Below are positions 7,817 through 38,705 of a stretch of 64,000 bases of DNA, in pieces; position 1 is the stretch's first letter; each line of letters starts with the position of its first letter. Origin of the DNA: an uncultured virus (IMG/VR IMGVR_UViG_3300033150_001690) (taxonomy: Duplodnaviria; Heunggongvirae; Uroviricota; Caudoviricetes); IMG/VR virus record IMGVR_UViG_3300033150_001690. One strand, given 5' to 3'. The position numbers and the translations under genes are program-made. The notes below the pieces were generated by a model that saw nothing but the letters and a program-made list of their open reading frames with translations, had not been told where the DNA came from and searched no databases.

Positions 7817-7895
7817 AGAAGTAAGAGAATATACGACCAAAAGATTTATAGCTTCTATATTTCATATTTAGCATATAAGATCTTTAGAGTATGGT

Positions 7896-19506: not shown

Positions 19507-19522
19507 TAGGAGAGAATAAAGA

Positions 19523-20191: not shown

Positions 20192-22063
20192 TTGAATTGT
20201 TCTATAGGAGGTATTGTTTATATGCGAGAGCATAGACCTGAGTTTATTAATAAAATAGTTACACAGAAGTTAAGTCAACTAGTAGAGGAGTATTTATATC
20301 AAAAGACCTGGAAGGTAAGAGAGAATGCTAATACAACATACTCTCTTCAGGCCTTAAACTTTCACATTTCTTCTGAAGTAATAGAGCAATATTGGTTAAA
20401 TTCAATATATAATGATCATACAGAATTGAAGAAGGCTCACTTGTCAGGAGACTTCCATATTCATGATCTACCAATTTTAGGACCATACTGTGTAGGATGG
20501 GATCTTCAAGATCTATTAATGACAGGTTTTACAGGAGTCCCTGGTAAGATAACTTCTAAACCTGCTAAACACTTTAGATCAGCACTAGGGCAAGTAGTGA
20601 ACTTCTTCTTCACTCTTCAAGGAGAAGCAGCGGGTGCACAGGCCTTTAGTAACTTTGATACTTATTTAGCTCCATTTATTAAATATGATCGTTTATCATA
20701 TAAACAGGTCAAACAGTCTCTTCAGGAGTTTCTATTCAACATTAATATTCCTACTAGAGTAGGATTTCAATCTCCTTTTACTAATATTACTCTAGATCTT
20801 GAAGTACCTAAGTTTATGAAGGATGAACCTGTTATAATAGGAGGTAAAGTAATGGATGCTCCTAGAAGTGACTTCCAAGAAGAAATGAATATGTTTAACA
20901 AGGCATTGTTTGAACTAATGGAGGAAGGAGACGGAGTAGGAAGAGTATTCACATTTCCCATACCTACTATTAATATCTCCAAAGACTTTAATTGGAATAA
21001 TGAAGTAACAGAGGCATTATTTAGAATGACCAATAAGTTTGGTATTCCCTACTTCGCTAACTTTGTTAATTCTAATCTTAATCCTGAAGATGTAAGAAGT
21101 ATGTGTTGTCATCTTCGTTTAGATAAGAGAGAGTTGAAGAAGAGAGGAGGAGGTCTCTTTGGAGCTAATCCATTAACAGGAAGTATAGGTGTAGTTACTA
21201 TCAATATGCCTAGAATAGGATATTTATCTAAAGATGAAGACGACTTCTTTGAAAGATTAGATCATTTAATGATCTTAGCTAAACAGGCATTAATGATCAA
21301 AAGACAACTTCTAGAGAAGTTAACAGATCAAGGTCTCTATCCATATTCTAAGTTTTATCTTCGTATGATTAAACAGAGATATAAAGAATATTGGAAGAAC
21401 CACTTCAATACTATTGGTCTAGTTGGGATGAACGAGGCCTGTCTTAACTTTCTGGGAGAACCAATATGTGAAAATACTGCTCTTCAGTTCTCTATTAAAG
21501 TGTTGAATTACATGAGAAGAAGACTTCAGGACTTCCAACAGGAGACCGGAGATATATTTAACTTAGAAGCTACTCCTGCTGAAGGAGCTAGTTATAGACT
21601 AGCTAAACTAGACAAGGAGAAGTATCCTAAGATAATAGTAGCTAATGAGAAGTACCTGTCTAAAGGATATAAGCCATTTTATACTAACTCTACTCAACTT
21701 CCTGTTGATCTAGAATTAGATGTTTTTGATGCTATAGCTCTTCAAGAAGAACTTCAAACATTATACACTGGAGGTACAGTATTTCATATTTATCTAGGAG
21801 AGAAGCTATACTCCTGGAGATCAACTTCTACTTTGATTAAACAGGTAGTGACCAGGTCACGAATTCCTTACTTTACATTAACTCCTACATTTAGTATCTG
21901 TCCTCAACATGGCTATATTTCAGGAAAGCACAACAACTGTCCTGGATGTGGAGCAAAATGTGAAGTGTACTCAAGAGTTGTAGGCTACCTGAGACCGGTT
22001 GACCAGTGGAATGACGGGAAACAAGCGGAGTTCTTTATTAGACATACCTTCGATCAATCATAA
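20192..22063 (+). CDS. nrdD: Anaerobic (class III) ribonucleoside-triphosphate reductase; start probably ATG 20222
   Basis: HIHDL, SMCC, EATPAEG, C-terminal Zn site and glycyl-radical motif YSRVVGYLRPV. Confidence 0.95.
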   Translation: MNCSIGGIVYMREHRPEFINKIVTQKLSQLVEEYLYQKTWKVRENANTTYSLQALNFHISSEVIEQYWLNSIYNDHTELKKAHLSGDFHIHDLPILGPYCVGWDLQDLLMTGFTGVPGKITSKPAKHFRSALGQVVNFFFTLQGEAAGAQAFSNFDTYLAPFIKYDRLSYKQVKQSLQEFLFNINIPTRVGFQSPFTNITLDLEVPKFMKDEPVIIGGKVMDAPRSDFQEEMNMFNKALFELMEEGDGVGRVFTFPIPTINISKDFNWNNEVTEALFRMTNKFGIPYFANFVNSNLNPEDVRSMCCHLRLDKRELKKRGGGLFGANPLTGSIGVVTINMPRIGYLSKDEDDFFERLDHLMILAKQALMIKRQLLEKLTDQGLYPYSKFYLRMIKQRYKEYWKNHFNTIGLVGMNEACLNFLGEPICENTALQFSIKVLNYMRRRLQDFQQETGDIFNLEATPAEGASYRLAKLDKEKYPKIIVANEKYLSKGYKPFYTNSTQLPVDLELDVFDAIALQEELQTLYTGGTVFHIYLGEKLYSWRSTSTLIKQVVTRSRIPYFTLTPTFSICPQHGYISGKHNNCPGCGAKCEVYSRVVGYLRPVDQWNDGKQAEFFIRHTFDQS

Positions 22064-23062: not shown

Positions 23063-24895
23063 ATGGTCAAGTATGAAACTATTAATCCAATTGAAGATGC
23101 ATATATTAATGCTCAGTATCCAGATACTAACTATGGTTCTGCTTCTTCCTTGGTACTTGGTTATTGGAATTATCGAAAAAACATTTATCTTAAGTTTACT
23201 ATTCCATCTCATTTTTCAAGCACTTTAGAATTATATGAGTATGATTACAATTATACCGATTCGTCTTTGTCTTTTAAGATCCAACAATGTTCTAATAATT
23301 GGAATGAAACTTCAATTACTTGGAACAACACTCCAAGTCCATTTGGAAGTACTCTTTCAGTGAGTTGGAGTACTGTGTCAGGTTGGCATCAAGTAGATAT
23401 CACTTCTCTTATTTCTACTTTACCTTCAGGATCAACAGTTAGTTTAGTCTTAATTTCTCCGACTTCCGGTCCTACAGATGATCTTCTTTTCTATTCTAGA
23501 GAAGCAGAAAATTATCATCCACGATTAATACTTGAAGTAAGGAGAAATGTGGAGAAGAGAATTTCTTCTAGTTATCTTGTACCTGCTACTAATCCACCTT
23601 CAGTTACATTTTTTGAGATAAATGGAAGTGGTGCTATCCAAACTCCTATTTCTTCAGCTAAGTACTATGTTAAAGATACTTGTAATCCTTCTTCAACTCT
23701 TAATCCAATTCCTGTTCCTTATCCTTATAATCAGGGATTTAATGGTACTGATTATCATTATTCTTATTGGAAACACTTTTTTGCTTCAATAACCGCTTCA
23801 GAAGGTACTATAGTTGAAGTTAGTGTTTATCCAGAAGATGCTTCACAATGGAAGAATAAACTAATAGTGGGTCTTAGAGATTCTGGAGACAATGGATGCC
23901 CAATTGGAAGTTATCAAGTAGCTAATGGGACAGAAGTTACAGGATTTCCAATTAATAGTAATTTACCAGGATCTTTAGGTCATGCTTACTATAGAGATCA
24001 AACAACAGGAGTAGGAACAATTGATTCTTATTCTAACACTTGTCCACTAATAATTGACACTTCAACAGGAATTGTTTTAACTTCTAAATGTTTAGTATCT
24101 CAGCTTAAAATCCCAGTAATGGCAGTATCAAGAAGTTATTGGGGAACAGGACCTAAAGATGTATTAAAGAGGTCCTTAGGAGAGAAGGTATTAATTTGGA
24201 CAATAAAAGAATCAAGATCAGATGGTACTTTTCCTTTTCACTTTAAATTAACATTAAATGCCGAGATATGCTCCTTAACAATTCCTGTTCTTCCAATTAA
24301 AGCATCTATAAGTATGTTTGGAATATCCGGAGAGATCTCTTCAGGGACTCTAAGAGCGTGGGATGATGAGAATTGTTCTACAGCTCTTGATGAAATATTT
24401 ACAGGTACTTCATATTTTGGAGATAACTCTATGTTAAGAGCATGTGTTACAGCTGAGAATGTGTCATTCTCATCAACTCTTGGATCTTTTCCTCCTGGTT
24501 GGGAGGAAGATGCTCCTTCTAGTCTTCAGTTCCAGTTACGTGGTACTCAAAGGGTTATTACTTTTGGATCTATAGATGAAGGAAACATGACCAGATTTGC
24601 TATTAGATTAATGACTCCATATGATATGAAGAAGAGAGGAGAAGTAAAAGCTTATCTTGAGATAGTAGGAGAAGAGTCTGGAGAGCATACTATATATTGG
24701 AATGTAGGAAGTGATTCTTCTCCTGTCTGGGTCCCTTCGAACTCTTTCTTCTTTGCTAGTTCTTTAACTGGATATAGAAGAGTAAGCTGGGAGTACCCAA
24801 CTGAGGGAAGAATATATGTTCCTTTAGCTTCCTTCTCTAGTACTCTTAATAAAGTATTTATTATATATGATAGAGATGCTCCAGAGGTGACATGA
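23063..24895 (+). CDS. Fibre/adhesin with N-terminal DNRLRE/CBM96-like domain
   Basis: EDAYIN-x2-YPDTNYG, WNE-x2-ITWNN-x-P, FYSRE...PRL motifs. Confidence 0.72.
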   Translation: MVKYETINPIEDAYINAQYPDTNYGSASSLVLGYWNYRKNIYLKFTIPSHFSSTLELYEYDYNYTDSSLSFKIQQCSNNWNETSITWNNTPSPFGSTLSVSWSTVSGWHQVDITSLISTLPSGSTVSLVLISPTSGPTDDLLFYSREAENYHPRLILEVRRNVEKRISSSYLVPATNPPSVTFFEINGSGAIQTPISSAKYYVKDTCNPSSTLNPIPVPYPYNQGFNGTDYHYSYWKHFFASITASEGTIVEVSVYPEDASQWKNKLIVGLRDSGDNGCPIGSYQVANGTEVTGFPINSNLPGSLGHAYYRDQTTGVGTIDSYSNTCPLIIDTSTGIVLTSKCLVSQLKIPVMAVSRSYWGTGPKDVLKRSLGEKVLIWTIKESRSDGTFPFHFKLTLNAEICSLTIPVLPIKASISMFGISGEISSGTLRAWDDENCSTALDEIFTGTSYFGDNSMLRACVTAENVSFSSTLGSFPPGWEEDAPSSLQFQLRGTQRVITFGSIDEGNMTRFAIRLMTPYDMKKRGEVKAYLEIVGEESGEHTIYWNVGSDSSPVWVPSNSFFFASSLTGYRRVSWEYPTEGRIYVPLASFSSTLNKVFIIYDRDAPEVT

Positions 24896-24896
24896 T

Positions 24897-27266
24897 ATGG
24901 TATGTGAAGCATGTGTAAGAAAACTTCAGGATAGATTAATTAAAAGGTATCATTTATCGACAGAGAAGGCCTATAAACTAGCTTATTCAGCTATTCAGCG
25001 GGTCGAGCTTAGAAAAAGAAAGGATCTATTAGATGGAATAATAGCTAATCTGATGAGTTTGGATCTATTTCCTAGAGTAAAGAAAGAGGAGAAGGCATTC
25101 AGATTAACAATTGATAATTTAACGAAGGATCAAATTGATAAATTAATTCATAAGACCAGGAAGGTATTTAGAGTTTTTCGTACTGGAGAATTTGTTACCA
25201 TTCTTGCTGTTTATCCGGGTATTTTGTTAGAAGGAAGAACTAACATACTTTGGAAGAAGAGAAGAAGAGTTCTAAAGAAGGGAAGATATTTTCATATCCG
25301 GGATATTTACAATAAAACATATAACAGAATAGAAGAGACTTTATTACCTAAAGATATAGATCCTGATTATAGTCAGAGTTGTCAAAAAGCAGGTTCTTGT
25401 TATTGTTCTTCTTCTTTGTTTACTTGTAGGTTTGATTTTCAATGTGTTGTCAACGAGTGTAGTTACTCATGTCCAGATCCTTCTGATCCAAATAGTAGTT
25501 TAGTAGGTAATGATTGTAGTGTTGGAAACAATTACAATTGTGCTTGCGGGGCAAATGGTTATTGTATAGATAATAGAACATGTACTTGTACTGTTTCAGG
25601 AAATTGTTATTATAAGTGCAATGAAGGATACTACTGGGATGGAAGTCAATGTGTACCTTTAATATCTAGAGTATTATCATTTATTCAGAAAGTTAAAAGG
25701 AAGTTCTCTCATAAGATAGAGATAAGAAGAACTTCTGTCCCTGAGTTCTCTGTTATTACTTCTGATATAGACACTGAGATCTTAGGAGGAGGATATCCAG
25801 CTAACGCTGTATTTCCTCATAATAAACGGGCCTGGGTATATGGTGGTTATTGGATTGTCTTCTTTACAGCTGCTAATAAGAAAGTAAAATATGCTGTAAC
25901 TTATGACCAGGAGAATTGGTCTATTTACGATACTCCTCTTCCTATATCTGACGGAGGATATGTTTCTTCATGGTTACATGGAAATACATTTGAAGTTTGT
26001 GGTAATTCTATTTATGTTCAGGGGACTTTTAGTGTCAATAAAGGATCTATTGATTGGAACTCTTGTTCTACTTTTGCTACTTCAGGATTGGCAAGATTTG
26101 GTAAGATATGTTCTACTCCAGATGGTTATATCTGGATAGCATATAGAGATGGTAATCCTCCAGCTACGTTTAAGGTTGATACAACCGAATACAAAGATGG
26201 AAGTTCATGGTCTTCTAGATCTGGATTTCCTAAGTCTCTTGATACTGCTACTTACACTGGAATTGCTTCAGTTCTTGTTGAACCTGCTAGTGAAAATGGT
26301 GTATATGTCTTTGAAGTTTGTTCAGAACTTACAACGAACGATTATATAGATCAAACAATTAGTTTAGTCACAGGGAGATATGTTGATCCTAACACTATTG
26401 GTCCAAAAGAAACAATTGCTAAAATATGGGAGCATCCTTCTTGCAATTCTGCAATTGACCCAGGAAACACTATATGGTTTGTTTCTTATCAGGGAGCTAG
26501 TAGAGGAAGTTTGTATTGTAGAGCTCCAGGAACTAATTCTACTTGGGTCTTTAAGGGAACTGTAAATAATGGTTATATTTTACAACCTGGATTTGCAATT
26601 CCCAATTCATCTATAGGTTACATGTTCTGGTTAGAAGGTTGGAGTGTTGACAATGAACTTGGATGGTACGAAACAATTGATCTGATTAATGGTTCTCTCA
26701 ATCCTGCTATGCCAATTCATGATGGACATAATTTCTTCTGGAGAGAATACTTCTTAACATGCAGTCAAAACCATCCGTATGAAGTCTTTGGCGTAGGAGC
26801 AGCAAAGGATCAAGAAGGAAACACTCGTTTAATTGCAAATATTATAGCTTGGAAGAGATTTATTAAAAAAGAAAGACCAATAACTTTTGCTATAAGAAAA
26901 ATAAAGAGTGCTATTCAAACAGTATCTTTTCTTCTAAAGAACTTAGCTGAAAGAATTATAAGTACCTTGCATGTTGAAGAAGACTATATTTTATCTGTTG
27001 ATGTTAATCCAACTGTTGTTATTAGAGAGACTTCAGAATATGTTCAGTTGAGAGCTGATTGGTCAGCATCTGGAGATAAACCTGCTTCTTCCTTCTCCTG
27101 TAAGTTTTATGTTAGAGATGAAAACAATACTGTTTATGGACCGTATTCGGGAACAGTTGTAAAAGAAGGCTATAATAAATACTATGCTACTTATAATTTA
27201 GATCCAGATAACTCATTTCTTCTAGGAAAGTATGATGTTAAAGCTGAAGTGGACTTCTTAGGGTAA
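24897..27266 (+). CDS. Multidomain fibre/receptor-binding protein (basic N-terminus, 16-Cys module, beta-rich domain, Ig-like C-terminus)
   Basis: Composition and position among structural genes; C-terminal GKYDVKAEV Ig-like strand. Confidence 0.6.
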   Translation: MVCEACVRKLQDRLIKRYHLSTEKAYKLAYSAIQRVELRKRKDLLDGIIANLMSLDLFPRVKKEEKAFRLTIDNLTKDQIDKLIHKTRKVFRVFRTGEFVTILAVYPGILLEGRTNILWKKRRRVLKKGRYFHIRDIYNKTYNRIEETLLPKDIDPDYSQSCQKAGSCYCSSSLFTCRFDFQCVVNECSYSCPDPSDPNSSLVGNDCSVGNNYNCACGANGYCIDNRTCTCTVSGNCYYKCNEGYYWDGSQCVPLISRVLSFIQKVKRKFSHKIEIRRTSVPEFSVITSDIDTEILGGGYPANAVFPHNKRAWVYGGYWIVFFTAANKKVKYAVTYDQENWSIYDTPLPISDGGYVSSWLHGNTFEVCGNSIYVQGTFSVNKGSIDWNSCSTFATSGLARFGKICSTPDGYIWIAYRDGNPPATFKVDTTEYKDGSSWSSRSGFPKSLDTATYTGIASVLVEPASENGVYVFEVCSELTTNDYIDQTISLVTGRYVDPNTIGPKETIAKIWEHPSCNSAIDPGNTIWFVSYQGASRGSLYCRAPGTNSTWVFKGTVNNGYILQPGFAIPNSSIGYMFWLEGWSVDNELGWYETIDLINGSLNPAMPIHDGHNFFWREYFLTCSQNHPYEVFGVGAAKDQEGNTRLIANIIAWKRFIKKERPITFAIRKIKSAIQTVSFLLKNLAERIISTLHVEEDYILSVDVNPTVVIRETSEYVQLRADWSASGDKPASSFSCKFYVRDENNTVYGPYSGTVVKEGYNKYYATYNLDPDNSFLLGKYDVKAEVDFLG

Positions 27267-27309
27267 AGGTTTATAGATATAAATATTTCTAAAATAGTAG
27301 GGATATACT

Positions 27310-29211
27310 ATGACTATGGAAGAAGAGAATCAAGATCCTGTAGAACGTGTTCTTTCTTATGGTTGGGAGGTATTGAAGATTCTAGCATGGCCTTTTGAGA
27401 ATTCATTAGATGTTTTTGAAGTACGAGGTCTAATTATAAAACTATCTTCTTTATTTCACTCTGTTAGGACAATAACATTTGGAGTATTATCTTTCATCTC
27501 CAAACTAAAGGCCTTTAGGAGACAAATTATAGGATACCTCTATTCTCTTGGTAGTTTGAGGACAACTATTTTAAGAATGGTCAACTCTGTTCTTGAATAC
27601 TCTAGTATTTTGCTTACTTCTAAACATCTATTAAAAGTAATTAGAAGTTATCAGCTAGGTCTGAAGTATTTTGTTAGAGTGTTCAGAAGTAGCCTTACTA
27701 GACTTCTGAATAGTGTGAGATCTTTCAGATCTCTGATGGTCTCTTCTAAATATCTTTTAGAGATACTTGTTTGTCGTTCATTAACACTCAAACACTATTT
27801 GAAGGTATTTATTTCTGGCCTGATAACTTCTTTTGATAATGTTTTAGTATTTATTTCCCAACTTCTTAAATTTATTTCAAATATTAGAGTTAATGTTGGC
27901 CTTTCTATTGTGTCTAGATTTCTTCTTAGACAATTCAAAAGTAAGATATTAAGATATGTCTATTCTCTTAAAGAGTTAAAGATCAGGTTAATTGATTTAA
28001 CCCACAAGATATTAATTATCTCTAGTAATTTTATCTCTTCTAAATATTTAATTCAGACCTTTGTTGGAGCAATACTATCATTGTGGTTTATTATTCGATC
28101 TTTTAGATCTTCAATTACTTCTCTTCTTTTTTCAATTAGATCTTTTAGAAGTGGCATTGTTGGAGGTGAATATCTTCTAAGGAATTTAAAGACAACTGGC
28201 CTAAGAATAAAGCATTCTCTTATAGGTATTATATCTCAAGTGAAGTTACTTAATTATTTGGTTGGTAATGTCAGAGCTAGATTAGTTGGGACCATCTGGA
28301 GAGCATACGCTAGAGTATTCTTAAGCTTCAGGACTTCTTACGTACTTAGAGAAATATCTTCTAAGGTCTTGTCTATTTCACATCTCTTAGTAAGATATGT
28401 TATTCAGACAATAGGACAACTCCACAAAGTTTTAAGCTTAGTTGAAGTTTCAATAACCTCTTTATTCAGGCTTAAAGAACTAGTTTCAGTATTAACTAGA
28501 CTAAGCTATTCTATTTTAAGACTAGTATACAACGTTTTATCTTCTTTCTTCTCTGTCCTGATCTTTAAAATAAGAAGTCTCTCCTTTAATTGGCTATCAA
28601 GACTATTAAGTTCTAAAAGTAAAACATTGGTCTATGGTCTTAGAAGTTTTTCTTCTAGAGTTATCAGGATGATACATTCTCTACTTCAATTAGGAGTTAT
28701 ATTCAGAAATCTGTCTTCACTTTATAGTCTTGCTCAGATCAGATTAGTAGTACTCTCTTTAGTTTCTAATGTTAGATCTTTTGTTTCTAAGATGATCAGT
28801 CTTCTTCAGAAGAACTTCGGTCTTCTGTGGAGAACAGTGAAGATTCTCTATACTCTTCCAGGTCAAGTATTTAGATTATTCACGATCATCTTTTCAAACC
28901 TGAATCTAAAAAGTGCTCTAATAACTTCTTCACATAATGTTCTTCATAAGATTGACAATTTATTAAATATTATCTATGAAGTTCTAAAATATCAAATAGT
29001 TGCAATGGTCTTAGGTCTAGAGTATTCTATGGTAGGAGTATTGTTTAGAGTATTTAGAGCTTCTTATACTGTTATTTACAAGTATTTAGAAGTTTTAACT
29101 GTTCTTATTAAAACACGACCGACTTCTATCTTGGTCAAGTTGAAGGATAGGGCTAAGTTAGTAAAAGAGAAGTTAAACCAAACATTTAAAAAGATCATAA
29201 CAGAAAAATAA
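27310..29211 (+). CDS. 14-residue-repeat protein, probable fibre shaft
   Basis: Regular 14-aa period with an aromatic/His residue at a fixed position; 42-nt DNA repeat at 28097/28139. Confidence 0.65.
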   Translation: MTMEEENQDPVERVLSYGWEVLKILAWPFENSLDVFEVRGLIIKLSSLFHSVRTITFGVLSFISKLKAFRRQIIGYLYSLGSLRTTILRMVNSVLEYSSILLTSKHLLKVIRSYQLGLKYFVRVFRSSLTRLLNSVRSFRSLMVSSKYLLEILVCRSLTLKHYLKVFISGLITSFDNVLVFISQLLKFISNIRVNVGLSIVSRFLLRQFKSKILRYVYSLKELKIRLIDLTHKILIISSNFISSKYLIQTFVGAILSLWFIIRSFRSSITSLLFSIRSFRSGIVGGEYLLRNLKTTGLRIKHSLIGIISQVKLLNYLVGNVRARLVGTIWRAYARVFLSFRTSYVLREISSKVLSISHLLVRYVIQTIGQLHKVLSLVEVSITSLFRLKELVSVLTRLSYSILRLVYNVLSSFFSVLIFKIRSLSFNWLSRLLSSKSKTLVYGLRSFSSRVIRMIHSLLQLGVIFRNLSSLYSLAQIRLVVLSLVSNVRSFVSKMISLLQKNFGLLWRTVKILYTLPGQVFRLFTIIFSNLNLKSALITSSHNVLHKIDNLLNIIYEVLKYQIVAMVLGLEYSMVGVLFRVFRASYTVIYKYLEVLTVLIKTRPTSILVKLKDRAKLVKEKLNQTFKKIITEK

Positions 29212-29553: not shown

Positions 29554-32500
29554 ATGAAGTTGCATTTCATTGGAAGCAGAGGATATATTGAAGAGAAGTC
29601 TTCTTCTCATAAGAACAGATCTTCTTTATTGCTAGAAACAAATAGAAGTAGAATTCTAATAGATTGGGGAGACGAATACAGTCCTGAAGAACTGAAGAAG
29701 ATCAATCCTGATGCTATTATAATTACTCACAGTCACCCTGATCATTTGTTTGGTCTGAAGAAGTTAAGGTCTTCCTTAGATATTCCTGTCTATATTTCTG
29801 AAGATAGTTTGAAGAGTGAATACTTCAAGAAGGAAGATTATCAATATGTTAACTTTACTTCTTTTAAGAGGTTAGATCATTTTAAGATACTAAATCTAGA
29901 AATGTTCACTGTTCCTATTCTTCATAGTTCTAAAGCTCCTAATCAGGCATTGATTGCTCAGGGCGAAGCAGGAAGACATAAGATATGTTATGCTTCGGAT
30001 ATTCTATCATTTCCTGTAAAATATAGACAGAAGTTACTAGGTTGTGATGTGTACATTGGAGATCTTTCTACTTTGAAGAAGGAGGGTCTTATAAGATATG
30101 ATAAGAAGAGAGATGAACCTATTGGTCATGCTTCTCCTCATACTCAGTTATCCTGGTGTAGTAAAGCAGGAGTTAGAACTGTAATATTTACTCATTTAGG
30201 ATCTGAACCTATTAAAATGGGAGATGACCAGGTCACTAAAAAGTTACAGGAGTTATCTAAAGAGTATTCTTTAAATATTATATTAGCAAAAGATGGTATG
30301 GTGATAGATCTGGACCATCTAGATCTTAAACCTTCTGATGTAGAAGCTATTACTCCTAAGAAGACTCCAACTCCACAATATGGTCTTATAATGGTCTCTC
30401 CTCATGGAAGATGGATTTATCAAGGAGTTAAGAAGGGAATAGTGAAGACAATTAAATTAAAAGAACATATTGGAGAACCATTGTATTTAATATCAGAAGG
30501 TATAGTATGGGGAGAGATCACTCTATATCCTCCTAAAGAGATAGATGAGAAGGAGTTTAAGAAATTATACAAATATCACAGGATATCTGAAGAAGAGAGA
30601 GAAGCATGGTCTAAGAAGGAGAAGAGATGGAGAGAGTTTCCATTATATTATTACACTTTTAGTTTTAAAAAGTATCCTAGACCAATACCAATTAGGTTGA
30701 AGGTGAAAGGACCACAGGTCTTTGTAAAAGCTTCTAATATTGAATTTCCTAAGACCAAACAACTAAACGATCTAGAACTAGTATACTATCATTCTCTAAG
30801 CCACTTATATCAGGAAGAATTAGGAGATCCATTCTATAACCTACACAGAGATATTGCTCTAGAGATGATCAGAAGAGGTATGTACCATAGTAGTGAGTCG
30901 CTATGTGATCGAGAAGTAGAACTAATAAAAGAAGAAGGACCTGAGTGGGTCAAGGCCTACATTAAGCGTCTTCCTAGATATACTAGAGCACAAGTAGGAG
31001 ATGACTTCAGGATAGTATTAGGCTGGTATTCTTCTTTAAAAAGAGGTAAGAAGTTATTCAAGGGAGAAGAGAAGGTCCCTATTAGAGAACAGGATTGTAA
31101 GACCTTAATACTAGCTATTATAAAAGAGCTGGTTAGAAGAGGAGCTACCTTCAATAGACCAGAGACTTATAAGAAGTATGCTAGAGAGTTGTTTGAATGG
31201 GCCATTAAACAAATAGGAGAAGATAAAATATCATGGAAGAAGGAATTATCTCTTAAACTCCCTGAAGGTTTTCAGGTCTCTGATATAGATATACCATTTG
31301 TTAAGAAGTTATCTAATGAAGAATTGGAAGAGTTATGGAAGTGGCTTCATAATAAATGGAGAGAAGACACAGGAGGTAAGAAGGTCCCGGAGAACTATCT
31401 TAATGCAAATGTATTTGTTCAGATAGAACGTTTTAAGAGAGGTCTAATAGATGAGACTTATGAAGATAAAGATAAACTAGATGAAGATGTTAGGTATGCC
31501 TGGCAGGAGTATGGTCTTCCTGGAGAGAAGATAAAGGCCAGAACCATAGTTAGAGAACCTCTTCCTGCTCTAGAAGAAGAACCTGAAGAGATCACTCTTC
31601 CTATTGTATTAGAAGCATTTAGAAATGCTGGTCCTGTTATAGTAAAAGGATATCCATATGGAGCATATCTATGTGGAAGACTAGTTAATGAAGGAAAGAT
31701 CCCTAAAGATCATGATATAGATTTGGCTATTAGACAAAGACCAGATCCTAGATTAATAGTAGCGTTAAAGAGAATGTCTCCTAAATGGTTGTTTAAAAGG
31801 TTACATCCGTTCTTCGATAAAGGAGCAGCAGGTATTGGATGGAGTGTTCCTATTTATGGATATAGTCTTAATCCTCTTCCTAAGGAGTTAATGAAGAAGG
31901 GCTTCTATCCATTTCCTTCATATCTAGAGAAGAAAGTAGATCCATGTGGAAGAATAGTAATAGGAGTTAAACCTAAGAGTGGTTTTGGGAAGAATGAGTT
32001 CTTTGACATAGATGAGATGTGGGAGAAGTGGGGAAGTAGGTTTATAGACCATGGAATACTAGTACAGGAGAAAGTAGATGGAAGAAGAATGATGTGTTAT
32101 AAATGTGGAGATAGGATCAGGATAATAACAGAAGATACTCATAGAGACAGATCTAAGCTCTTCCCTGAGATAGTTAATGAACTGAAGAAGATTCCTGGAG
32201 ACTGGATACTAGATGGAGAAATGGTAGCATATGAATTACCTCCTAGGATAGAAGGGAAGGATGCTAGGACCAAACGGATGATAGGCGAACATATACCTAG
32301 AGAGGACACGGCCCAAGTGACGACCGGACAACCTGATGAAGAATTTAGGAAGAAGATAGTTCATGTCTTCTATGACATACTATATTGGAAGGAGTCACTG
32401 GTCAATAAGGGATTTGAAGAACGATATGAGATATTGAAGAAGGCCATTCCTAGACATGCTAAATATATTGATGTGGTTAGAGGAGAAGAAGCAAATAACA

Positions 32501-35196
32501 TGAAGGACTTCTATAGACTAGTAGACAAATACAGAAGAGTTAGTGGATCAGAAGGAGTGGTCTGTAAGGTATCAGATGCTCCTTATCCTATAAAATATAC
32601 AGGTGAAAATAGAACAGACTTCATGTGTAAGTTGAAGAATCTTAAAGAGATAGATGTTATGGTCTTAGATATTCAACAGAAGAAGACAAAAGAAGGTAAA
32701 CTTCTTCCTACTTATATCTATGTGTGTGGATTCCTTCTTCCTGAAAACAAAGTAGAAGAGTTCTCGAAGAACAGAGTAGTAGAATATAATAGTAAACACT
32801 ATTGTATCCTAGGAAGGGCCTATGGTACTAATGTGAAGTGTAAGAAGGGAGACATAGTAACTATAATGCCTATTAGAATAAGAGAGTATAAAGATAAACA
32901 AAATAAGAGATACTTCACCTGGATGTTTCCATATTTCAAGGAGAAGAGACCTGACAAACATGAAGCAGATACGTTAACTACTGTAGAACGTATAGCTAAG
33001 ATAGGAACTGGACCTGCTCCTTCTAAGAAGAGAGAATTAGAAAAAGATGACCAGATCACTGTTACTATTAAACTAGATCCATGTCCCTTCTGGAATGATC
33101 CAGATATATGTCCTCTTCTAAAAAGATTTAGATTTCCTAGAGATGAATTAAGTAATGTAATAGTAGAACAGGAGATCCTTAGATTTCCTATAATATGTCC
33201 ATTAGCTAAGGTCTTTAAGTGTAGATTTGTAAAGGACTATTACTATAAGGTGATACCTGTAGCAGAGTATTCTTCAGAATTATCTGATGGAGACATAGAT
33301 ATTAATGAGTTACTTCTTCCAGAATTGGCCAAGAAAATAATCTTACAAAAGTATATGGAATGTCCATGTAAAGAGGAGAGTTTTGTGATGCAAAGTCATC
33401 GTATCGGCATTACTCCTGGTCATAAAGCTGAAGACCCTGGAGAGACCTGGTCACAACACTGTGACTTCAGGATGAAGACAAATGGATATCTAGTTGGATG
33501 GAGTATAGTAGGAGGTCATAAAGGAGATGAAATGGGTCCAGAGAAATTCTTGAAGAATATAGGGAAAGGTTTTAGAGCAGAGACGAAAGCGAGACAACCA
33601 TTGGTCTGGATGGATGTTCAGGGAAGATTTAAACCTGGAGAAGTAGGAGCAGGAATACATACTGCAGGAGAGATGTGGATCCAAACTAAAGGAAAAGTAA
33701 GATTTGGAGCACAGAAACCATACTTCCATGAATATTTCCTGAAGGATGATAAATACTTTAAAGACTGGACTAGAGTTATTATTAGGGCCATTAATGTTCC
33801 TAAGATATCTCCTGAGACCAAAGTGAAGACTCCTCATAAGGAGTTAATGTGGAGATTTATGATCCCTAAAGAACAAATGCCATATACTATAAGCAATAGA
33901 GCTATGAAGGAAGGATGGATACCTCCTAAGAGTTGCAGAACACCATTCCCTGAAGAGTGGGTAAAGAAGAAGTGGCCTGAACAATATGCTAAATGGGAGG
34001 AGTATATGAAGAGTAAGAAGATAGAACTATCTAACATTAACTATACTTTTAGTATGCACAGTTATAGAGGACCAGTTCATGTTAGAGCAATGTGGAGAAG
34101 AGCATGGTATCTAATGTTAGATGATAAAGGAGAAGGTAAAGTAAGGATCTTCAGAATACATGAGTTTCTTCCTGTAGAGAAGCAGGGAGTAGCTATAAAC
34201 GAAGGGAGAGACTCTAGGAAGTATATGTCCTTCGAAGGAAAGACCAGACCTGATTCTAGATTTAACCCTAATGAGAAGTTAGTAGGTGAGATGAAGATCA
34301 TCTCTTCAGGAAAAGTCTCATACGACAGTAAAATAGAAAATGGTAAAGAAGTTATTCATTTAAAGTTTCCTTCAGGAACATTGAAGGGAGAATGGATACT
34401 AGAACAAGAGGAGAAGGGATCAGATATCTATACTATTATACAGGCCCAAGAAGAATCTCTAGAACTAGGAGGAGTAAAAGCACATTTTGTCTATCATAAA
34501 CATATTATAGGAGATAGATACCACTTCGATCTAAGATATGTGAAGGAAGGAGATAATGTTGTTAATGAGTACAACTTACATGAAGATTTAAGAGAGAAGG
34601 ATATAGAAGAACCTGTTCAAGTAGTGAAGAAAACCTGTTCTGATATATCATGGATGCATATTAAGAAGCCTAGAGAAGTAAGATATGTTGGTCCTTTGAA
34701 GACTATAGTAGAACCTATAGATGAAGGAGACATGCTGATAATAGAGGAGAATCCTGACTTTATTTCTTATAAGTTAAATGGTAAGATCTTAAAAGGATAC
34801 TATATTGCTAAGAAGACACCTGAAGGGTGGATCTTTGAGAAGGCTAGACTACCTAAGACAGGTCTAAGTGGAGAAGGTAACCCTAGAGTTGGACCATTTA
34901 GGAAGTTCGTAATAAAAGAGAAGAAGAACTGGGATCACTTTATAGTTTATATTTATGACTTCAGGGAGTTTACTAGATGTGTCTCTCCTGAGAAGGTTAA
35001 GAAATATCTTCCTAATCTGAAGATCCCTGAAGGAGTAGAAGTAGGAATATGTTTGTATCCTGTTCCAGGTCGTATTCATCATGTTAGAGTGGCATATGTT
35101 ATCTTTAAGAAGGACAAGTGGTCCTATGAAGATGCTGAGAAGTGGATAAGAAAGAACAATCTCCATAAATGGGATGGAGTTTTAATTAGAGAATAG
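29554..35196 (+). CDS. 1880-aa polyvalent protein: MBL hydrolase, ASCH, nucleotidyltransferase-like, ATP-dependent DNA ligase, LigD-type 3'-phosphoesterase domains
   Basis: THSHPDH; GLIMVSPHG-x2-I-x2-GVK; LCG...DIDL; ligase EKVDG (K840), LDGE, FYDIL, EGVVCK, KLK; PE motifs FVMQSH...HCDFRM and FVYHKH...HFDLRY. Confidence 0.88.
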   Translation: MKLHFIGSRGYIEEKSSSHKNRSSLLLETNRSRILIDWGDEYSPEELKKINPDAIIITHSHPDHLFGLKKLRSSLDIPVYISEDSLKSEYFKKEDYQYVNFTSFKRLDHFKILNLEMFTVPILHSSKAPNQALIAQGEAGRHKICYASDILSFPVKYRQKLLGCDVYIGDLSTLKKEGLIRYDKKRDEPIGHASPHTQLSWCSKAGVRTVIFTHLGSEPIKMGDDQVTKKLQELSKEYSLNIILAKDGMVIDLDHLDLKPSDVEAITPKKTPTPQYGLIMVSPHGRWIYQGVKKGIVKTIKLKEHIGEPLYLISEGIVWGEITLYPPKEIDEKEFKKLYKYHRISEEEREAWSKKEKRWREFPLYYYTFSFKKYPRPIPIRLKVKGPQVFVKASNIEFPKTKQLNDLELVYYHSLSHLYQEELGDPFYNLHRDIALEMIRRGMYHSSESLCDREVELIKEEGPEWVKAYIKRLPRYTRAQVGDDFRIVLGWYSSLKRGKKLFKGEEKVPIREQDCKTLILAIIKELVRRGATFNRPETYKKYARELFEWAIKQIGEDKISWKKELSLKLPEGFQVSDIDIPFVKKLSNEELEELWKWLHNKWREDTGGKKVPENYLNANVFVQIERFKRGLIDETYEDKDKLDEDVRYAWQEYGLPGEKIKARTIVREPLPALEEEPEEITLPIVLEAFRNAGPVIVKGYPYGAYLCGRLVNEGKIPKDHDIDLAIRQRPDPRLIVALKRMSPKWLFKRLHPFFDKGAAGIGWSVPIYGYSLNPLPKELMKKGFYPFPSYLEKKVDPCGRIVIGVKPKSGFGKNEFFDIDEMWEKWGSRFIDHGILVQEKVDGRRMMCYKCGDRIRIITEDTHRDRSKLFPEIVNELKKIPGDWILDGEMVAYELPPRIEGKDARTKRMIGEHIPREDTAQVTTGQPDEEFRKKIVHVFYDILYWKESLVNKGFEERYEILKKAIPRHAKYIDVVRGEEANNMKDFYRLVDKYRRVSGSEGVVCKVSDAPYPIKYTGENRTDFMCKLKNLKEIDVMVLDIQQKKTKEGKLLPTYIYVCGFLLPENKVEEFSKNRVVEYNSKHYCILGRAYGTNVKCKKGDIVTIMPIRIREYKDKQNKRYFTWMFPYFKEKRPDKHEADTLTTVERIAKIGTGPAPSKKRELEKDDQITVTIKLDPCPFWNDPDICPLLKRFRFPRDELSNVIVEQEILRFPIICPLAKVFKCRFVKDYYYKVIPVAEYSSELSDGDIDINELLLPELAKKIILQKYMECPCKEESFVMQSHRIGITPGHKAEDPGETWSQHCDFRMKTNGYLVGWSIVGGHKGDEMGPEKFLKNIGKGFRAETKARQPLVWMDVQGRFKPGEVGAGIHTAGEMWIQTKGKVRFGAQKPYFHEYFLKDDKYFKDWTRVIIRAINVPKISPETKVKTPHKELMWRFMIPKEQMPYTISNRAMKEGWIPPKSCRTPFPEEWVKKKWPEQYAKWEEYMKSKKIELSNINYTFSMHSYRGPVHVRAMWRRAWYLMLDDKGEGKVRIFRIHEFLPVEKQGVAINEGRDSRKYMSFEGKTRPDSRFNPNEKLVGEMKIISSGKVSYDSKIENGKEVIHLKFPSGTLKGEWILEQEEKGSDIYTIIQAQEESLELGGVKAHFVYHKHIIGDRYHFDLRYVKEGDNVVNEYNLHEDLREKDIEEPVQVVKKTCSDISWMHIKKPREVRYVGPLKTIVEPIDEGDMLIIEENPDFISYKLNGKILKGYYIAKKTPEGWIFEKARLPKTGLSGEGNPRVGPFRKFVIKEKKNWDHFIVYIYDFREFTRCVSPEKVKKYLPNLKIPEGVEVGICLYPVPGRIHHVRVAYVIFKKDKWSYEDAEKWIRKNNLHKWDGVLIRE

Positions 35197-35802: not shown

Positions 35803-37350
35803 ATGATAATTTGTAAAATAAACAAGGTGGTTAAAGTGAATGAGTCTATTCTTCAAGAATTATTAGCGGAGAATGCTATGTTAAGGGAGAAGTTAGACCA
35901 GAGAAGATCAGAACTATCTTCCAGATTTGTTATTCTTCAGGAAAAACCATTGAAGATCCATGGAGTATTAATAGCTGAAGGGGTATGGAAGGGGGTACTA
36001 TATGACTATAATGAAATGAAGAAGTCTAAAGACAAGTTCTTAAGTCTTCCATTGAAGGTCCAACATGGTCATAGTGAAGACTTTGGAGATAGAAGTGTAG
36101 GAAAGATCACTAAAGTCAAAGCAGAAGATCTTTTAAAGTCACTAACATTTGAAGCAGAAGTAACAGATCCTAAGGCTATAGAACTAGTGAAGAATGGTAC
36201 ATTAGATGCTGTCTCTATAAAGGGATCATTTGAGTTAGTAGATACTTCTTCTACTCCACCTAAAGGAGTTAATTATACACCTGAAGAAGTTAGTTTAACA
36301 CCTTCTCCTGCATGTGAGTTCTGCCAGATATTTAATTATGAATTATCTAAGAAATGTGGAGAATTGTTCTCTAAAGAGCAATATTTAAATAATAAGACTT
36401 CCATTCAAGAAGTAGGTGATCAGAAAATGGAGCTAAATGAGAATGAAATTTACATAGGAGAAGACGATGTTCTAGTGTTTCCTGAACTAACAGAAGAAGA
36501 CCAAGAAGGAGAGTTTGAGATTGTTAAAGAGAAGGATTTTAAGGAATTAGCTAAGAAGAAGGCTGTGAAGGTTAAACCAGGAGTGTATCCTACTAAGGTT
36601 AAGAAAGTAGTTGTTAAGAAGGGATCTACTGTACCTAAGTATCCTTATTATGGTTATTATCCATATGGATATTGCTACTATTACTACTACCCAGGGTATG
36701 GATATCCAATGGAGAAGTTATCTGAAGAAGAGATCGTAGACATTCTTCTTGAAGGAGATTATAGGACATTCATGAAAGAATGTATGAAGTCAGGTAAAGA
36801 CATGAAGACCTGTGCTAAAGAGTGGAAGGAGAAGGCAGGTAAATACCCTGCTCCTGTGAAAGGAGAAGAGGCTAGTAAGGAGGAAGGGAACTGGCCTGAA
36901 CTAGAACTAGCTGAGATCAAATGTCCTGTATGTGGAAAGGTCTTTAAGACCAAGAAGGAGTTCTTGAAACATTGGGAAGAGAAACATGCTGCTAAGTATG
37001 GAGAATATGGTCAGGTAAGGAAGTTAATTAGAGACCTTAAAGAGAAGCCAGAACTAAAAAAGGCACTAAGAAAACATTTTGAACTGTCTGAAGAGACTCC
37101 TAAAGAAGAGTCTAAAGAAGAAGTTAAACAAGAAGAACCTAAAAAAGAAGAAGTAAAGAAGGAGGAAGAGAAACATGAAGAGACTCCTACACAGGAGAAG
37201 GAGAAGGTTGAGGAGAAGACTCAGGAGACTCCTAAGACAGAGAGTGTACCTGAACCTCCGAAGAAGAATATAGATGAAATAATTAAAGAACTAACTTCAC
37301 CTGAAAAAGCAGCTGAACTTCTAATAGCTTCTAGCAGGAAGGAAGACTAA
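35803..37350 (+). CDS. Prohead protease-scaffold fusion (start probably GTG 35836)
   Basis: IAEGVW, VQH, VG-x-I, AVSI and EVSL-x3-PAC motifs; acidic/Lys-rich C-terminus; upstream of MCP. Confidence 0.82.
   Translation: MIICKINKVVKVNESILQELLAENAMLREKLDQRRSELSSRFVILQEKPLKIHGVLIAEGVWKGVLYDYNEMKKSKDKFLSLPLKVQHGHSEDFGDRSVGKITKVKAEDLLKSLTFEAEVTDPKAIELVKNGTLDAVSIKGSFELVDTSSTPPKGVNYTPEEVSLTPSPACEFCQIFNYELSKKCGELFSKEQYLNNKTSIQEVGDQKMELNENEIYIGEDDVLVFPELTEEDQEGEFEIVKEKDFKELAKKKAVKVKPGVYPTKVKKVVVKKGSTVPKYPYYGYYPYGYCYYYYYPGYGYPMEKLSEEEIVDILLEGDYRTFMKECMKSGKDMKTCAKEWKEKAGKYPAPVKGEEASKEEGNWPELELAEIKCPVCGKVFKTKKEFLKHWEEKHAAKYGEYGQVRKLIRDLKEKPELKKALRKHFELSEETPKEESKEEVKQEEPKKEEVKKEEEKHEETPTQEKEKVEEKTQETPKTESVPEPPKKNIDEIIKELTSPEKAAELLIASSRKED
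36427..37350 (+). CDS. Nested in-frame scaffold protein (internal start M209)
   Basis: TTTAAAT at 36384-36390 and RBS GGTGAT at 36415-36420 ahead of in-frame ATG 36427. Confidence 0.6.
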   Translation: MELNENEIYIGEDDVLVFPELTEEDQEGEFEIVKEKDFKELAKKKAVKVKPGVYPTKVKKVVVKKGSTVPKYPYYGYYPYGYCYYYYYPGYGYPMEKLSEEEIVDILLEGDYRTFMKECMKSGKDMKTCAKEWKEKAGKYPAPVKGEEASKEEGNWPELELAEIKCPVCGKVFKTKKEFLKHWEEKHAAKYGEYGQVRKLIRDLKEKPELKKALRKHFELSEETPKEESKEEVKQEEPKKEEVKKEEEKHEETPTQEKEKVEEKTQETPKTESVPEPPKKNIDEIIKELTSPEKAAELLIASSRKED

Positions 37351-37646: not shown

Positions 37647-38705
37647 ATGAAGAATGTTATTCAAGAACTAGACCTTGCTCCTTCAGATGTTACAGTGATT
37701 ACTCCAAAAGTTATTAGTGGAGTAATTGAAGAGATTAGGAGACACAAACGTGTATGGGCACAGTTCTATAAGACCAACAGAGACCTGGTCAACAATGGAG
37801 GTAAAGAGATAGAGTTTCCAAAGAAAGAGTCAGGAATAACTGCTACTTTTGATGTGTCTGCAGGTACAGGGATATCAGCAAGTAATATGACCTACTCTGC
37901 TGTTACAATAACAGTGAAGAAAGGTGGAATAGGTCTTGGCTTTCAGGGAGAAGCTATTAGACAGGCCAATAGAGATGTTCTTGCTGATGCTATTAAAGAA
38001 GCAGGTGAAGTATGGGCTGATACATTAGATATAGTTGCTTTAGAAGCAATGTTTCCTTCTGTAACTGTAGCAGAGACCTCCGGAGCTAGTACTGTTGCTG
38101 CTTCATTCCCAGTAGTTGGTATTAAAAGTTACAATGGTGGATTCTCTAAGATAATAAACTATGCTTCTTCTTCAAGCATAGTATTTACTAATAAAGGGAC
38201 AGTTACATACTGGTATGCACCTCAGACCAATGCTGAGGGAGATACTATTGGAGCTAGGAGAATAACTTCTACTGCAGGAAGCTTTAGTGCTAAAGACATA
38301 TTGAATGCTAGAAGTGACATTATAGCCAATAAGTTTGAACCTGAAGTGCTTGTAATTCATCCTGATGTATTGACAGATATTCTATATGATCCAACAGTGA
38401 AGTTCCTGGAGAAATCAGTATACAAAGGTGAAGGAGAACTATACAATGCTGAACTGGGAAGAATATGGGATCTTAGAGTTATAGTTAGCAACAAATGTCC
38501 AAGATATGCTGCTGTGCTGATAGACCCAGGAGACCTTGGCTATGAAGTTATCAGAAAAGACCTGAAGTTGGTCAGAGATGAATACTCTGGTATGAGTATG
38601 GATGTGTTATATTTCTGGGGCTTTGGAGAACTCAACTATGGTGTGGTCAATGCTCAGGCATATGGAGTAGTTGCAATGCAAGGTACTCTAACAGAAGCTA
38701 ATTAA
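37647..38705 (+). CDS. Major capsid protein (HK97 fold)
   Basis: 352 aa; LVIHP, GELYNAELGRIWDLRVIVSN motifs; strong RBS; follows protease/scaffold. Confidence 0.9.
   Translation: MKNVIQELDLAPSDVTVITPKVISGVIEEIRRHKRVWAQFYKTNRDLVNNGGKEIEFPKKESGITATFDVSAGTGISASNMTYSAVTITVKKGGIGLGFQGEAIRQANRDVLADAIKEAGEVWADTLDIVALEAMFPSVTVAETSGASTVAASFPVVGIKSYNGGFSKIINYASSSSIVFTNKGTVTYWYAPQTNAEGDTIGARRITSTAGSFSAKDILNARSDIIANKFEPEVLVIHPDVLTDILYDPTVKFLEKSVYKGEGELYNAELGRIWDLRVIVSNKCPRYAAVLIDPGDLGYEVIRKDLKLVRDEYSGMSMDVLYFWGFGELNYGVVNAQAYGVVAMQGTLTEAN

Follow-up and report, generated by a model that had tools for sequence, protein, structure and literature searches.

A giant protein of uncultured tailed viruses with ligase, nucleotidyltransferase and phosphoesterase-fold domains, linked to head genes: a candidate capsid-borne DNA end-repair enzyme

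A stretch of DNA of 64,000 nt from an uncultured virus of the Caudoviricetes (IMG/VR record IMGVR_UViG_3300033150_001690), hereafter called the window, encodes at positions 29554..35196 (+ strand) a giant protein (P0001) in a single open reading frame (ORF) of 1880 aa, as had been read in a first-pass annotation of the sequence. The protein combines a metallo-beta-lactamase (MBL) fold, an ASCH domain, a probable nucleotidyltransferase (NTase), an ATP-dependent DNA ligase and three barrels of the LigD phosphoesterase (PE) type, and across its family this module is linked or fused to prohead protease and portal genes. The reading preferred here, to which a probability of roughly 50% is given, is that the giant protein is a LigD-like enzyme that would heal DNA ends, add nucleotides, seal the strand and be loaded into the capsid.

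Domain composition of the giant protein

The domains are listed below, all on the + strand; pLDDT (predicted local distance difference test) values refer to AlphaFold models of two stretches of the protein, built from alignments of 18 and 45 sequences (mean pLDDT 80 and 82).

29554..30318, + strand (aa 1-255): MBL-fold hydrolase; the HxHxDH motif is THSHPDH, aa 58-64
30337..30753, + strand (aa 262-400): ASCH domain; pLDDT >90; Foldseek, VIA and profile matches
30754..31578, + strand (aa 401-675): helical region; conserved motifs DDxRIVLGWYSS and NAxIFxQxExxKRG
31579..31953, + strand (aa 676-800): probable Pol-beta-superfamily (minimal nucleotidyltransferase-like) domain; G708, D721, D723, D755
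31954..32643, + strand (aa 801-1030): ATP-dependent DNA ligase adenylation domain; PF01068, motifs I, III, IV and V
32644..33003, + strand (aa 1031-1150): ligase OB domain; profile alignment to 4eq5, 9dfa and 3rr5
33004..33363, + strand (aa 1151-1270): Cys-rich linker or possible zinc module; conserved C1177, C1186, C1215 and C1223; modelled at low pLDDT
33364..34023, + strand (aa 1271-1490): PE1, LigD-PE-like barrel with insertions; homologous to PE3
34024..34458, + strand (aa 1491-1635): PE2, degenerate PE barrel; homologous to PE3
34459..34863, + strand (aa 1636-1770): PE3, compact PE barrel; CkoPE-like structure
34864..35193, + strand (aa 1771-1880): C-terminal alpha/beta domain; pLDDT ~90; kept at the C-terminus throughout the family

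Regarding the ligase, the Pfam family DNA_ligase_A_M (PF01068) matched with an E value of 3.5e-20, as against 2.9e-4 for the Pfam family RNA_ligase. Motif I was found as K840 in EKVDGRR, motif III as ILDGE (aa 885-889), motif IV as EGVVCK (aa 1000-1005) and motif V as KLK (aa 1026-1028); K840, D842, G843, R845, E889, E1000, G1001, K1005, K1026 and K1028 are invariant. The alignment to the archaeal structures 4eq5, 9dfa and 3rr5 spans both the adenylation and the OB domain (profile positions 780-1092). The closest PDB entries are archaeal and human Lig1-type ligases (E 6e-16 to 1e-13), whereas the ligase domain of LigD (1vs0) matched at E 0.26.

The segment ahead of the ligase is probably an NTase of the Pol-beta/minimal nucleotidyltransferase type. 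Pol-beta NTases carry the motif hG[GS]x9-13Dh[DE]h plus a third carboxylate; in the giant protein, YLCGR...HDIDL (aa 705-726, nt 31666-31731) supplies G708-R709...D721-I-D723, with Arg in place of the usual Ser/Gly, and D755 is the third carboxylate. All four residues are invariant in an alignment of 15 homologues; in a second alignment D755 is near-invariant and the other three are again invariant. Structure comparison by VIA gave 1no5 (Z 7.0, 85 aa, 20% identity), 1wot (Z 6.3), 2rff (Z 6.1) and 8xeh (Z 6.1) over 84-96 residues; a Z of about 8 is advised for trust in this method, and lower values can reflect a common arrangement. Two of the three weak profile matches were to NTases aligned on the catalytic motif (the terminal uridylyltransferase (TUTase) 2b4v and AF0614).

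The PE domains start at aa 1277 (nt 33382), 1499 (nt 34048) and 1645 (nt 34486). PE3 superimposes on the stand-alone CkoPE of Korarchaeum (3p4h; VIA Z 16.8, root-mean-square deviation (rmsd) 2.0 A, 116/118 residues, 25% identity; Foldseek E 3.2e-6; phmmer E 4.8e-4 with a residue alignment) and on the PE domain of LigD from Pseudomonas (PaeLigD, 3n9b; VIA Z 14.0). By hhalign, PE1 and PE2 match PE3 with probabilities of 98.9% (E 2e-17) and 99.8% (E 7e-30), respectively, unrelated controls remaining below 0.5%, and Pfam LigD_N was found at the position of PE1 in relatives (e.g., P0068, E 4.2e-8). The eight-stranded beta-barrel of the PE fold is thus present in PE3 by structure and in PE1 and PE2 by homology to PE3.

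Active-site columns were counted in 72-108 family members, using the residue alignment to CkoPE and its essential residues. In the part of PMC3082917 consulted, these are His9, His15, Asp17, Arg19, His51 and Tyr55, the H51A variant yielding <1% product. PE1 keeps H1282, H1302, D1304 and R1306 in 68-72 of 72 members, with Q1348 at the position of His51 (68/72) and W1352 at that of Tyr55 (72/72). PE3 keeps H1650, H1657, D1659 and R1661 in 92-95 of 101; its His51 position is Ser or variable, the adjacent C1695 is conserved (75/101), and W1700 stands at the Tyr55 position (97/101). PE2 has R1511 in place of the metal-binding Asp (106/108), poorly kept His positions and no Arg. Judged from these columns, PE1 and PE3 are PE-fold domains with a family-specific variant active site and not canonical LigD-PE domains; their 3'-phosphoesterase activity is only hypothesised, because both deviate where the alanine mutant of CkoPE has <1% activity. 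The first-pass annotation had described two clear PE domains and a degenerate one; all three were recovered, PE2 without Asp and Arg, and the two clear ones turned out to lack the canonical His and Tyr.

At the N-terminus, the MBL domain matched Pfam Lactamase_B_2 (PF12706) with E 5.7e-14 (52.6 bits against a cut-off of 27; E 2.1e-15 on the domain alone), phrog_392 (metal-dependent hydrolase, 8e-13) and, by profile against the PDB, RNase Z (1y44, 9e-5); one source labels a homologue 'ribonuclease BN'. The ASCH domain has the ASCH/PUA-like beta-barrel fold, as seen from Foldseek (2dp9, E 4.5e-5), VIA (5guq, Z 10.3, rmsd 3.6, 124 aligned; 6kir, Z 9.9; 2kku, Z 9.4) and PDB profile matches (2dp9/1wk2, E 4-6e-3), and its structural relatives include a ribonuclease-type ASCH protein and an N4-acetylcytidine (ac4C) amidohydrolase. 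The helical region (aa 401-675) takes roughly the place of the N-terminal DNA-binding domain of ligases; it gave no significant match in the PDB profile search, only non-specific helical matches in VIA and no usable match in the ESM Atlas, and no DNA-binding domain of the Lig1/archaeal ligase type was among the matches of the aa 256-800 model or the profile matches of aa 401-675. For the C-terminal domain, the PDB profile search gave no match, the best VIA Z was 3.3-3.7, the BFVD fold search was uninformative, and the ESM Atlas returned only unnamed viral clusters (scores 0.85-0.87).

The MBL fold with THSHPDH, the ASCH-like domain, the NTase-like motif (LCG...DIDL, ~31670-31720) and the full ATP-dependent ligase with K840 and motifs III-V had already been proposed from the sequence, and the Pfam, Foldseek and VIA matches and the invariant residues given above agree with these assignments. 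Pfam, profile and structure comparisons together upheld all domain identities that had been proposed, that of the NTase at the level of probable.

The protein family and its linkage to head genes

Homologues of the whole ORF numbered 26 in metagenomes, P0002-P0021 being 33-72% identical to it. A HMMER scan with aa 1131-1880 returned 661 cluster representatives (50% identity) at E <= 1e-3, 360 at E <= 1e-10 and 93 at E <= 1e-30. Architectures were determined by mapping hidden Markov models (HMMs) of each domain of the giant protein onto 170 fetched proteins; in addition, 33 viral loci were fetched with a stand-alone C-terminal part as the query, which favours split forms.

A protease domain is carried by 21 of the 170 fetched relatives, C-terminally in 20 and internally in P0022. 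In a Pfam scan of 32 relatives, Peptidase_S78_2 was present C-terminally in 6 (E 1e-23 to 1e-30), and an HMM of this XkdF-type domain matched 9 of the 170, 6 of these 9 having been used to build it. An independent HMM, made solely from the N-terminal domain of a 515-aa protein encoded in the window downstream of the giant ORF (see below) and its locus homologues, detected 12 relatives in addition to these 9 (11 C-terminal, P0022 internal). P0098, P0083 and P0115 end in ...PE3-Cterm-protease, the gene order of the window as one chain.

By script count, 21 of the 33 related viral loci have the prohead protease either joined to the module or at most two ORFs downstream of it: the protease is fused in 2, the next ORF in 18 and the second ORF in 1. 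It lies five to eight ORFs downstream in 6 loci and was not seen in the fetched stretch of the other 6, two of which end within one ORF of the module; for two of these six, the contig shows the protease beyond a fibre-like cassette. Examples are L037 (TerL-portal-[ligase-OB-PE-protease]-223 aa-capsid), L015 (portal-module-Peptidase_S78), L038 (Mu portal-giant protein) and L007 (MuF ... ASCH ... module+XkdF-365 aa-capsid), and in several divergent viruses the module stands between portal and capsid genes. A fusion of another kind occurs in L035 (1123-3444) and L036 (1132-3444), where an ASCH domain 36-37% identical to that of the giant protein is joined to a portal protein; the portal call (Pfam Phage_portal, 4e-8) is weak and below the gathering score. 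Without a physical association between the module and the head during assembly, fusions of such varied kinds would be difficult to account for, and they suggest such an association. The survey for homologues beside head genes that the first-pass annotation had called for has therewith found a linkage, in 21/33 loci and, as protease fusions, in 21/170 proteins.

The core NTase-ligase-OB-(Cys)-PE1-PE2-PE3-Cterm recurs, its parts occurring together in nearly all architectures of the 170 proteins. MBL and ASCH occur as neighbours, whether N-terminal (giant ORF), in the order ASCH-MBL at the start of the chain (P0024, P0026, P0027) or C-terminal (P0161, P0149, P0163), and in another branch (P0124, P0130, P0154) the PE barrels precede the ligase. 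In many relatives, including most related viral loci, the gene is divided behind the Cys-rich stretch, giving an N-terminal part and a C-terminal part of ~620-700 aa. A single ORF from ligase to C-terminus, as in the window, was seen only in L012 among the 33 loci; the closest homologues, by contrast, often have fused forms of 1500-1880 aa. In L032-L036 and L039 (e.g., L033, 1897-3741 and 3871-6069) the ligase itself is divided between adenylation and OB domains in two adjacent ORFs, the OB domain forming one chain with the PE barrels. D12 methyltransferase and PAPS-reductase domains occur as additions in distant relatives.

Inteins occupy at least five sites: beside D755 of the NTase (aa ~752-755 in P0003), in the helical region, in OB, next to the H1302 motif of PE1 (4 relatives) and deeper in PE1. 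Those with LAGLIDADG endonucleases were found in P0003, P0009, P0013, P0014, P0018, P0031, P0032, P0040, P0041, P0044, P0047, P0061, P0062 and P0067, the last apparently with several. Inteins favour conserved catalytic sites. Because the domains are shuffled yet retained together, and because inteins sit at conserved motifs, the module appears to be one functional unit under strong constraint.

A search of 50,697 phage records by tblastn matched only the uncultured archaeal virus ANMV-1 (KP703175; L001, 1913-9368). Its 866-aa 'ATP-dependent DNA ligase' aligns to aa 698-1634 of the giant protein with 25% identity; its gene is flanked by those of a 'MutT-like hydrolase' and of a hypothetical protein of 1168 aa, with the terminase nearby. 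With P0161 as the query, no related loci were found in viral contigs.

The window, part of a contig of 77 kb, is a gene array on the + strand of a tailed virus with ~35% GC. Its other features, from Pfam and PHROG annotation of the ORFs, are as follows.

1538-2539: RadA
3553-4392: ParB-like protein
5079-6062: protease
6503-7816, + strand: Mu-type portal (Pfam Portal_Mu, 2.6e-10), 22 kb upstream of the giant ORF
after the portal and before the following block: DNA methylase
10718-20170: block of glycosyltransferase, radical-SAM and sugar-nucleotide genes
20192-22063: NrdD
23063-29211: three large unannotated proteins, one with CBM96, upstream of the giant ORF
between these and the giant ORF: ORF of 110 aa
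35239..35784, + strand: ORF of 181 aa; phrog_5335 (unknown function), 8e-6; no Pfam match
35803..37350, + strand: putative prohead protease of 515 aa; the N-terminal ~180 aa are protease-like, the tail is scaffold-like
37647..38705, + strand: major capsid protein (Pfam Phage_capsid_4, 8e-10; phrog_544, 1.8e-11)
downstream of the major capsid protein, in this order: head-closure protein, tail tube, tape measure
49469-50734, minus strand: TerL

The giant ORF had been placed between fibre genes and the prohead protease. The large genes upstream are at most candidate fibre genes, unannotated apart from one CBM96 domain; a protease-like protein, that of 515 aa, is indeed encoded two genes downstream, followed by the capsid gene. 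It is a putative XkdF-type prohead protease: a 13-sequence profile matched the XkdF domain by hhalign with a probability of 89.6% (E 1.9e-6; 7% only with a 3-sequence profile), phrog_2229 (head maturation protease) matched at 2.8e-3, and H88 and S138 are invariant. A Pfam protease family was found in none of the 13 family members, the comparison with the Peptidase_S78 protein of L015 gave an hhalign probability of 0.1%, and the PDB profile search was empty. That the C-terminal domain of the giant protein is itself a diverged XkdF protease was considered and rejected (hhalign probability 0.2%). A predicted complex of this domain with aa 1-200 of the 515-aa protein scored 0.00, which is evidence neither way. 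The 515-aa protein (35803-37350) also contains an extended stretch of low complexity rich in Tyr and Pro (consensus YYYGYP...YPY), as well as a C2H2 zinc finger (aa 373-395) that is shared by 6 of 13 homologues; both are odd for a scaffold-like tail.

The 9.5-kb block at 10718-20170, in the interval from portal to capsid, encodes glycosyltransferases, a GT2-radical SAM/SPASM fusion, a UbiA prenyltransferase, a dual-specificity phosphatase, two epimerases and a nucleotidyltransferase. The block has a partial counterpart in L002 and L003 and may serve to glycosylate virions or the surface of the host. In L002-L005 (~107-128 kb), the giant gene is flanked by two divergent paralogues of the major capsid protein, which lie in opposite orientations and are accompanied by separate sets of head genes (e.g., L003, 8507-9568 minus and 17937-19007 plus). 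In L007, genes for GTP cyclohydrolase I, QueC and DUF5591 (7-deazaguanine pathway; 5849-7997) lie directly upstream of the protease-fused ligase/PE gene, which hints at DNA modification genes in the same head-module block.

The host of the virus is likely archaeal, judging from a recombinase of the RadA/Rad51 type, one homologue labelled as an Ignisphaera metagenome-assembled genome (MAG), archaeal labels on the MAGs of 4 of the 7 matches in species-representative genomes, ANMV-1 as the sole match among the phage records, and a TerL whose best match is an Altiarchaeum virus (26% identity).

Proposed role and alternative explanations

In LigD, the polymerase adds ribonucleotides, the PE domain trims and dephosphorylates the 3' end, and the ligase seals. 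By analogy, PE1 and PE3, as metal-binding barrels, would clear blocked 3' ends, the Pol-beta-type NTase would add one or a few nucleotides, and the ATP-dependent ligase (adenylation and OB domains) would seal the strand; an MBL nuclease and a nucleic-acid-binding ASCH domain may trim or recognise ends, and PE2, probably confined to binding, may aid substrate binding together with the Cys-rich stretch. Double-strand end joining and the repair of single-strand breaks or gaps would both fit. We infer that the substrate is DNA, that the reactions run in this order, and that the virion carries the protein and delivers it to the cell; DNA is favoured because the ligase belongs to the DNA-ligase family and the module is associated with a DNA-filled head. 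The giant protein would be made alongside the head proteins, would probably enter the procapsid with the XkdF-type prohead protease and, packaged beside the DNA, could act on the viral genome at entry, or within the head provided that its ligase is already adenylylated. Since ligase-AMP is stable as an intermediate, one round of sealing by a packaged ligase would be possible in the absence of external ATP.

A more far-reaching version is proposed only tentatively, with distinctly less confidence than the capsid-loaded enzyme as such: a large and mostly uncultured, probably archaeal group of tailed viruses might carry a complete DNA break-repair machine in the capsid, its ligase perhaps precharged with AMP. 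Equally tentative are the loading of this machine via the prohead protease or the portal, and the repair of heat- or nuclease-made breaks in the viral genome in the head or at entry, before viral expression. Genome circularisation is less likely as the main role; since the virus encodes RadA, circularisation need not use end joining. The packaged heal-and-seal toolkit of the first-pass annotation has gained comparative support from the protease and portal fusions and the synteny in 21/33 loci and is partly supported, its 3'-phosphoesterase label standing as a hypothesis. Cleavage as a polyprotein and the mending of cuts made by Cas or restriction enzymes are conjectural elements of it.

Several observations weigh against a capsid-loaded LigD-like enzyme. 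PE1 and PE3 are without the phosphate-binding His and Tyr of CkoPE, so that their chemistry may differ. The fold support for the NTase is middling (Z 6-7) and its PDB profile matches are non-significant (E 0.38 and 0.98). Pfam families of 5'-kinases, Ku or AEP (archaeo-eukaryotic primase) polymerases were detected neither on the giant protein (E <= 1) nor on the 72 other ORFs of the window, beyond which the contig extends for 13 kb. For ASCH and for RNase Z-like MBL families, a link to RNA is the more common one. No cultured virus among the phage records searched carries the module, and the 33 loci share ancestry, so the synteny counts are not independent events. In the window the portal is 22 kb away, with sugar-metabolism and NrdD genes between portal and capsid; because non-structural genes also occur in this interval, position in the window alone is weak evidence.

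The last point also bears on the nearest alternative, which shares the enzymology and dispenses with packaging: a late cytoplasmic enzyme of DNA maturation or repair, encoded near head genes for timing only, would work on viral DNA that has been replicated or is concatemeric, sealing its nicks and healing its ends ahead of packaging or in the course of it. The ligase, PE and NTase domains fit this alternative equally well, and the glycosyltransferases, radical SAM proteins and NrdD encoded between portal and capsid show that non-structural enzymes are possible there. Moreover, Pfam revealed neither a DNA polymerase nor a primase nor another ligase among the 73 ORFs of the window (13 kb of the contig being outside it), so the virus may need a nick sealer of its own. 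Timing alone hardly accounts, however, for repeated and differing protease fusions (21/170) together with ASCH-portal fusions, or for a spot directly upstream of the protease kept in 21/33 loci across very divergent viruses, and the cytoplasmic enzyme is considered rather doubtful.

A kit for the repair or processing of RNA ends (e.g., of tRNA cut by host defence ribonucleases) is unlikely. MBL and ASCH would here handle RNA, PE would remove 2',3'-cyclic or 3'-phosphates, the NTase would rebuild 3' ends and the ligase would seal. This is in line with the proximity of the MBL domain to RNase Z (1y44, 9e-5) and the name 'ribonuclease BN' of a homologue, with the ribonuclease-type and ac4C amidohydrolase relatives of the ASCH domain, with the weak alignment of the NTase motif to an RNA-editing TUTase and with the weak Pfam RNA_ligase match (2.9e-4); PE enzymes, moreover, work on 3'-ribonucleotide ends according to the part of PMC3082917 consulted. 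The ligase, however, has an OB domain, falls into the DNA-ligase family and has replicative ligases as its nearest relatives, Pfam shows no 5'-kinase domain that could act on the 5'-OH ends produced by metal-independent RNases, the NTase has neither the body nor the tail of CCA-adding enzymes, none of which was among its fold matches, and the linkage to portal, protease and capsid suits a DNA-associated role.

Least probable is mainly an anti-defence cargo rather than a repair enzyme. The MBL domain would degrade the cyclic-nucleotide immune signals of the host, small nucleotides would be the substrates of the variant PE barrels and the NTase, and the ligase would be just one activity among several unconnected ones, as in polyvalent proteins. 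The presence in distant relatives of D12 methyltransferase and PAPS-reductase domains (typical of polyvalent and anti-restriction proteins), the non-canonical PE active sites and a precomputed database tag of the MBL region, PF23023 (probably an anti-Pycsar MBL family), would agree with it, whereas PF23023 was not reproduced in our own Pfam scans of the protein and of the MBL domain, even at E <= 10, and the joint occurrence of the NTase-ligase-OB-PE core in nearly all architectures argues for one pathway.

Significance and comparison with known systems

If the capsid-loaded DNA-repair enzyme is real, no earlier case of a DNA repair system carried in the virion would precede it; to our knowledge, a DNA break-repair kit built into a virus head has not yet been shown experimentally for any virus. 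Viruses would then bring their own genome-repair capacity, with bearing on virion survival in damaging environments, on the escape of incoming DNA from nucleases (restriction enzymes, CRISPR-Cas) and on the stabilisation of linear genomes at entry. The family offers a natural analogue of LigD with a Pol-beta-type NTase in place of the AEP polymerase, the PE barrels with Gln or Cys for His may have a new chemistry, and the protease and portal fusions are directly testable constructs for loading cargo into capsids. In the full-text literature, supplements and subscription journals being outside the search, no description of the architecture of the giant protein was found, nor anything pairing ANMV-1 with a ligase.

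The mycobacteriophages Corndog and Omega encode Ku, which recruits host LigD for genome circularisation. The likeness lies in end joining on the virus's own genome after entry; these phages bring Ku and borrow the host ligase, whereas the virus of the window brings the enzymes, with no Ku found. Head-carried phage enzymes modify host machinery or transcribe early genes, and among the packaged phage enzymes in the literature examined no ligase or DNA end-repair enzyme was found.

Phage polyvalent proteins, as described in the part of PMC5512222 consulted, are likewise large multi-enzyme proteins, encoded by portal, MuF or head genes and predicted to be packaged and injected. The module is encoded with such genes and unites several unrelated enzymatic domains per chain, and its distant relatives bear a D12 methylase, as polyvalent proteins do; its fusion partner, by contrast, is the prohead protease. 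In the same part of that source, no ligase is reported joined to polyvalent proteins, ASCH is not mentioned, the phosphoesterase is of the 2H type, and large polyvalent proteins are almost all bacterial, with a paucity in archaea. T4 Alt, the P1 Dar proteins and the N4 virion RNA polymerase are given there as head-loaded and injected with the DNA; none of them is a ligase or end-repair enzyme, and packaging of the giant protein is proposed from fusions and synteny.

Regarding stand-alone archaeal PE enzymes (CkoPE 3p4h, MbaPE 3p43; part of PMC3082917 consulted), PE3 keeps the positions of His9, His15, Asp17 and Arg19; unlike CkoPE, it is without His51 and Tyr55 (Trp) and is embedded in the triple repeat of the giant protein. 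With bacterial LigD the giant protein shares the union of PE-fold 3'-end healing, nucleotide addition and an ATP-dependent ligase in one polypeptide, as well as the conserved PE metal site (His, His, Asp) and Arg. It differs in that LigD has an AEP polymerase and a single PE domain and works with Ku, whereas the giant protein has a Pol-beta-type minimal NTase and three barrels, with His replaced by Gln or Cys and Tyr by Trp, and no Ku was found among the ORFs of the window. Its ligase resembles Lig1/archaeal ligases (6e-16) more closely than it does the ligase domain of LigD (1vs0, E 0.26), and the giant protein adds MBL and ASCH, is viral and is encoded beside capsid-assembly genes. By analogy, then, the giant protein would work like LigD but is no LigD.

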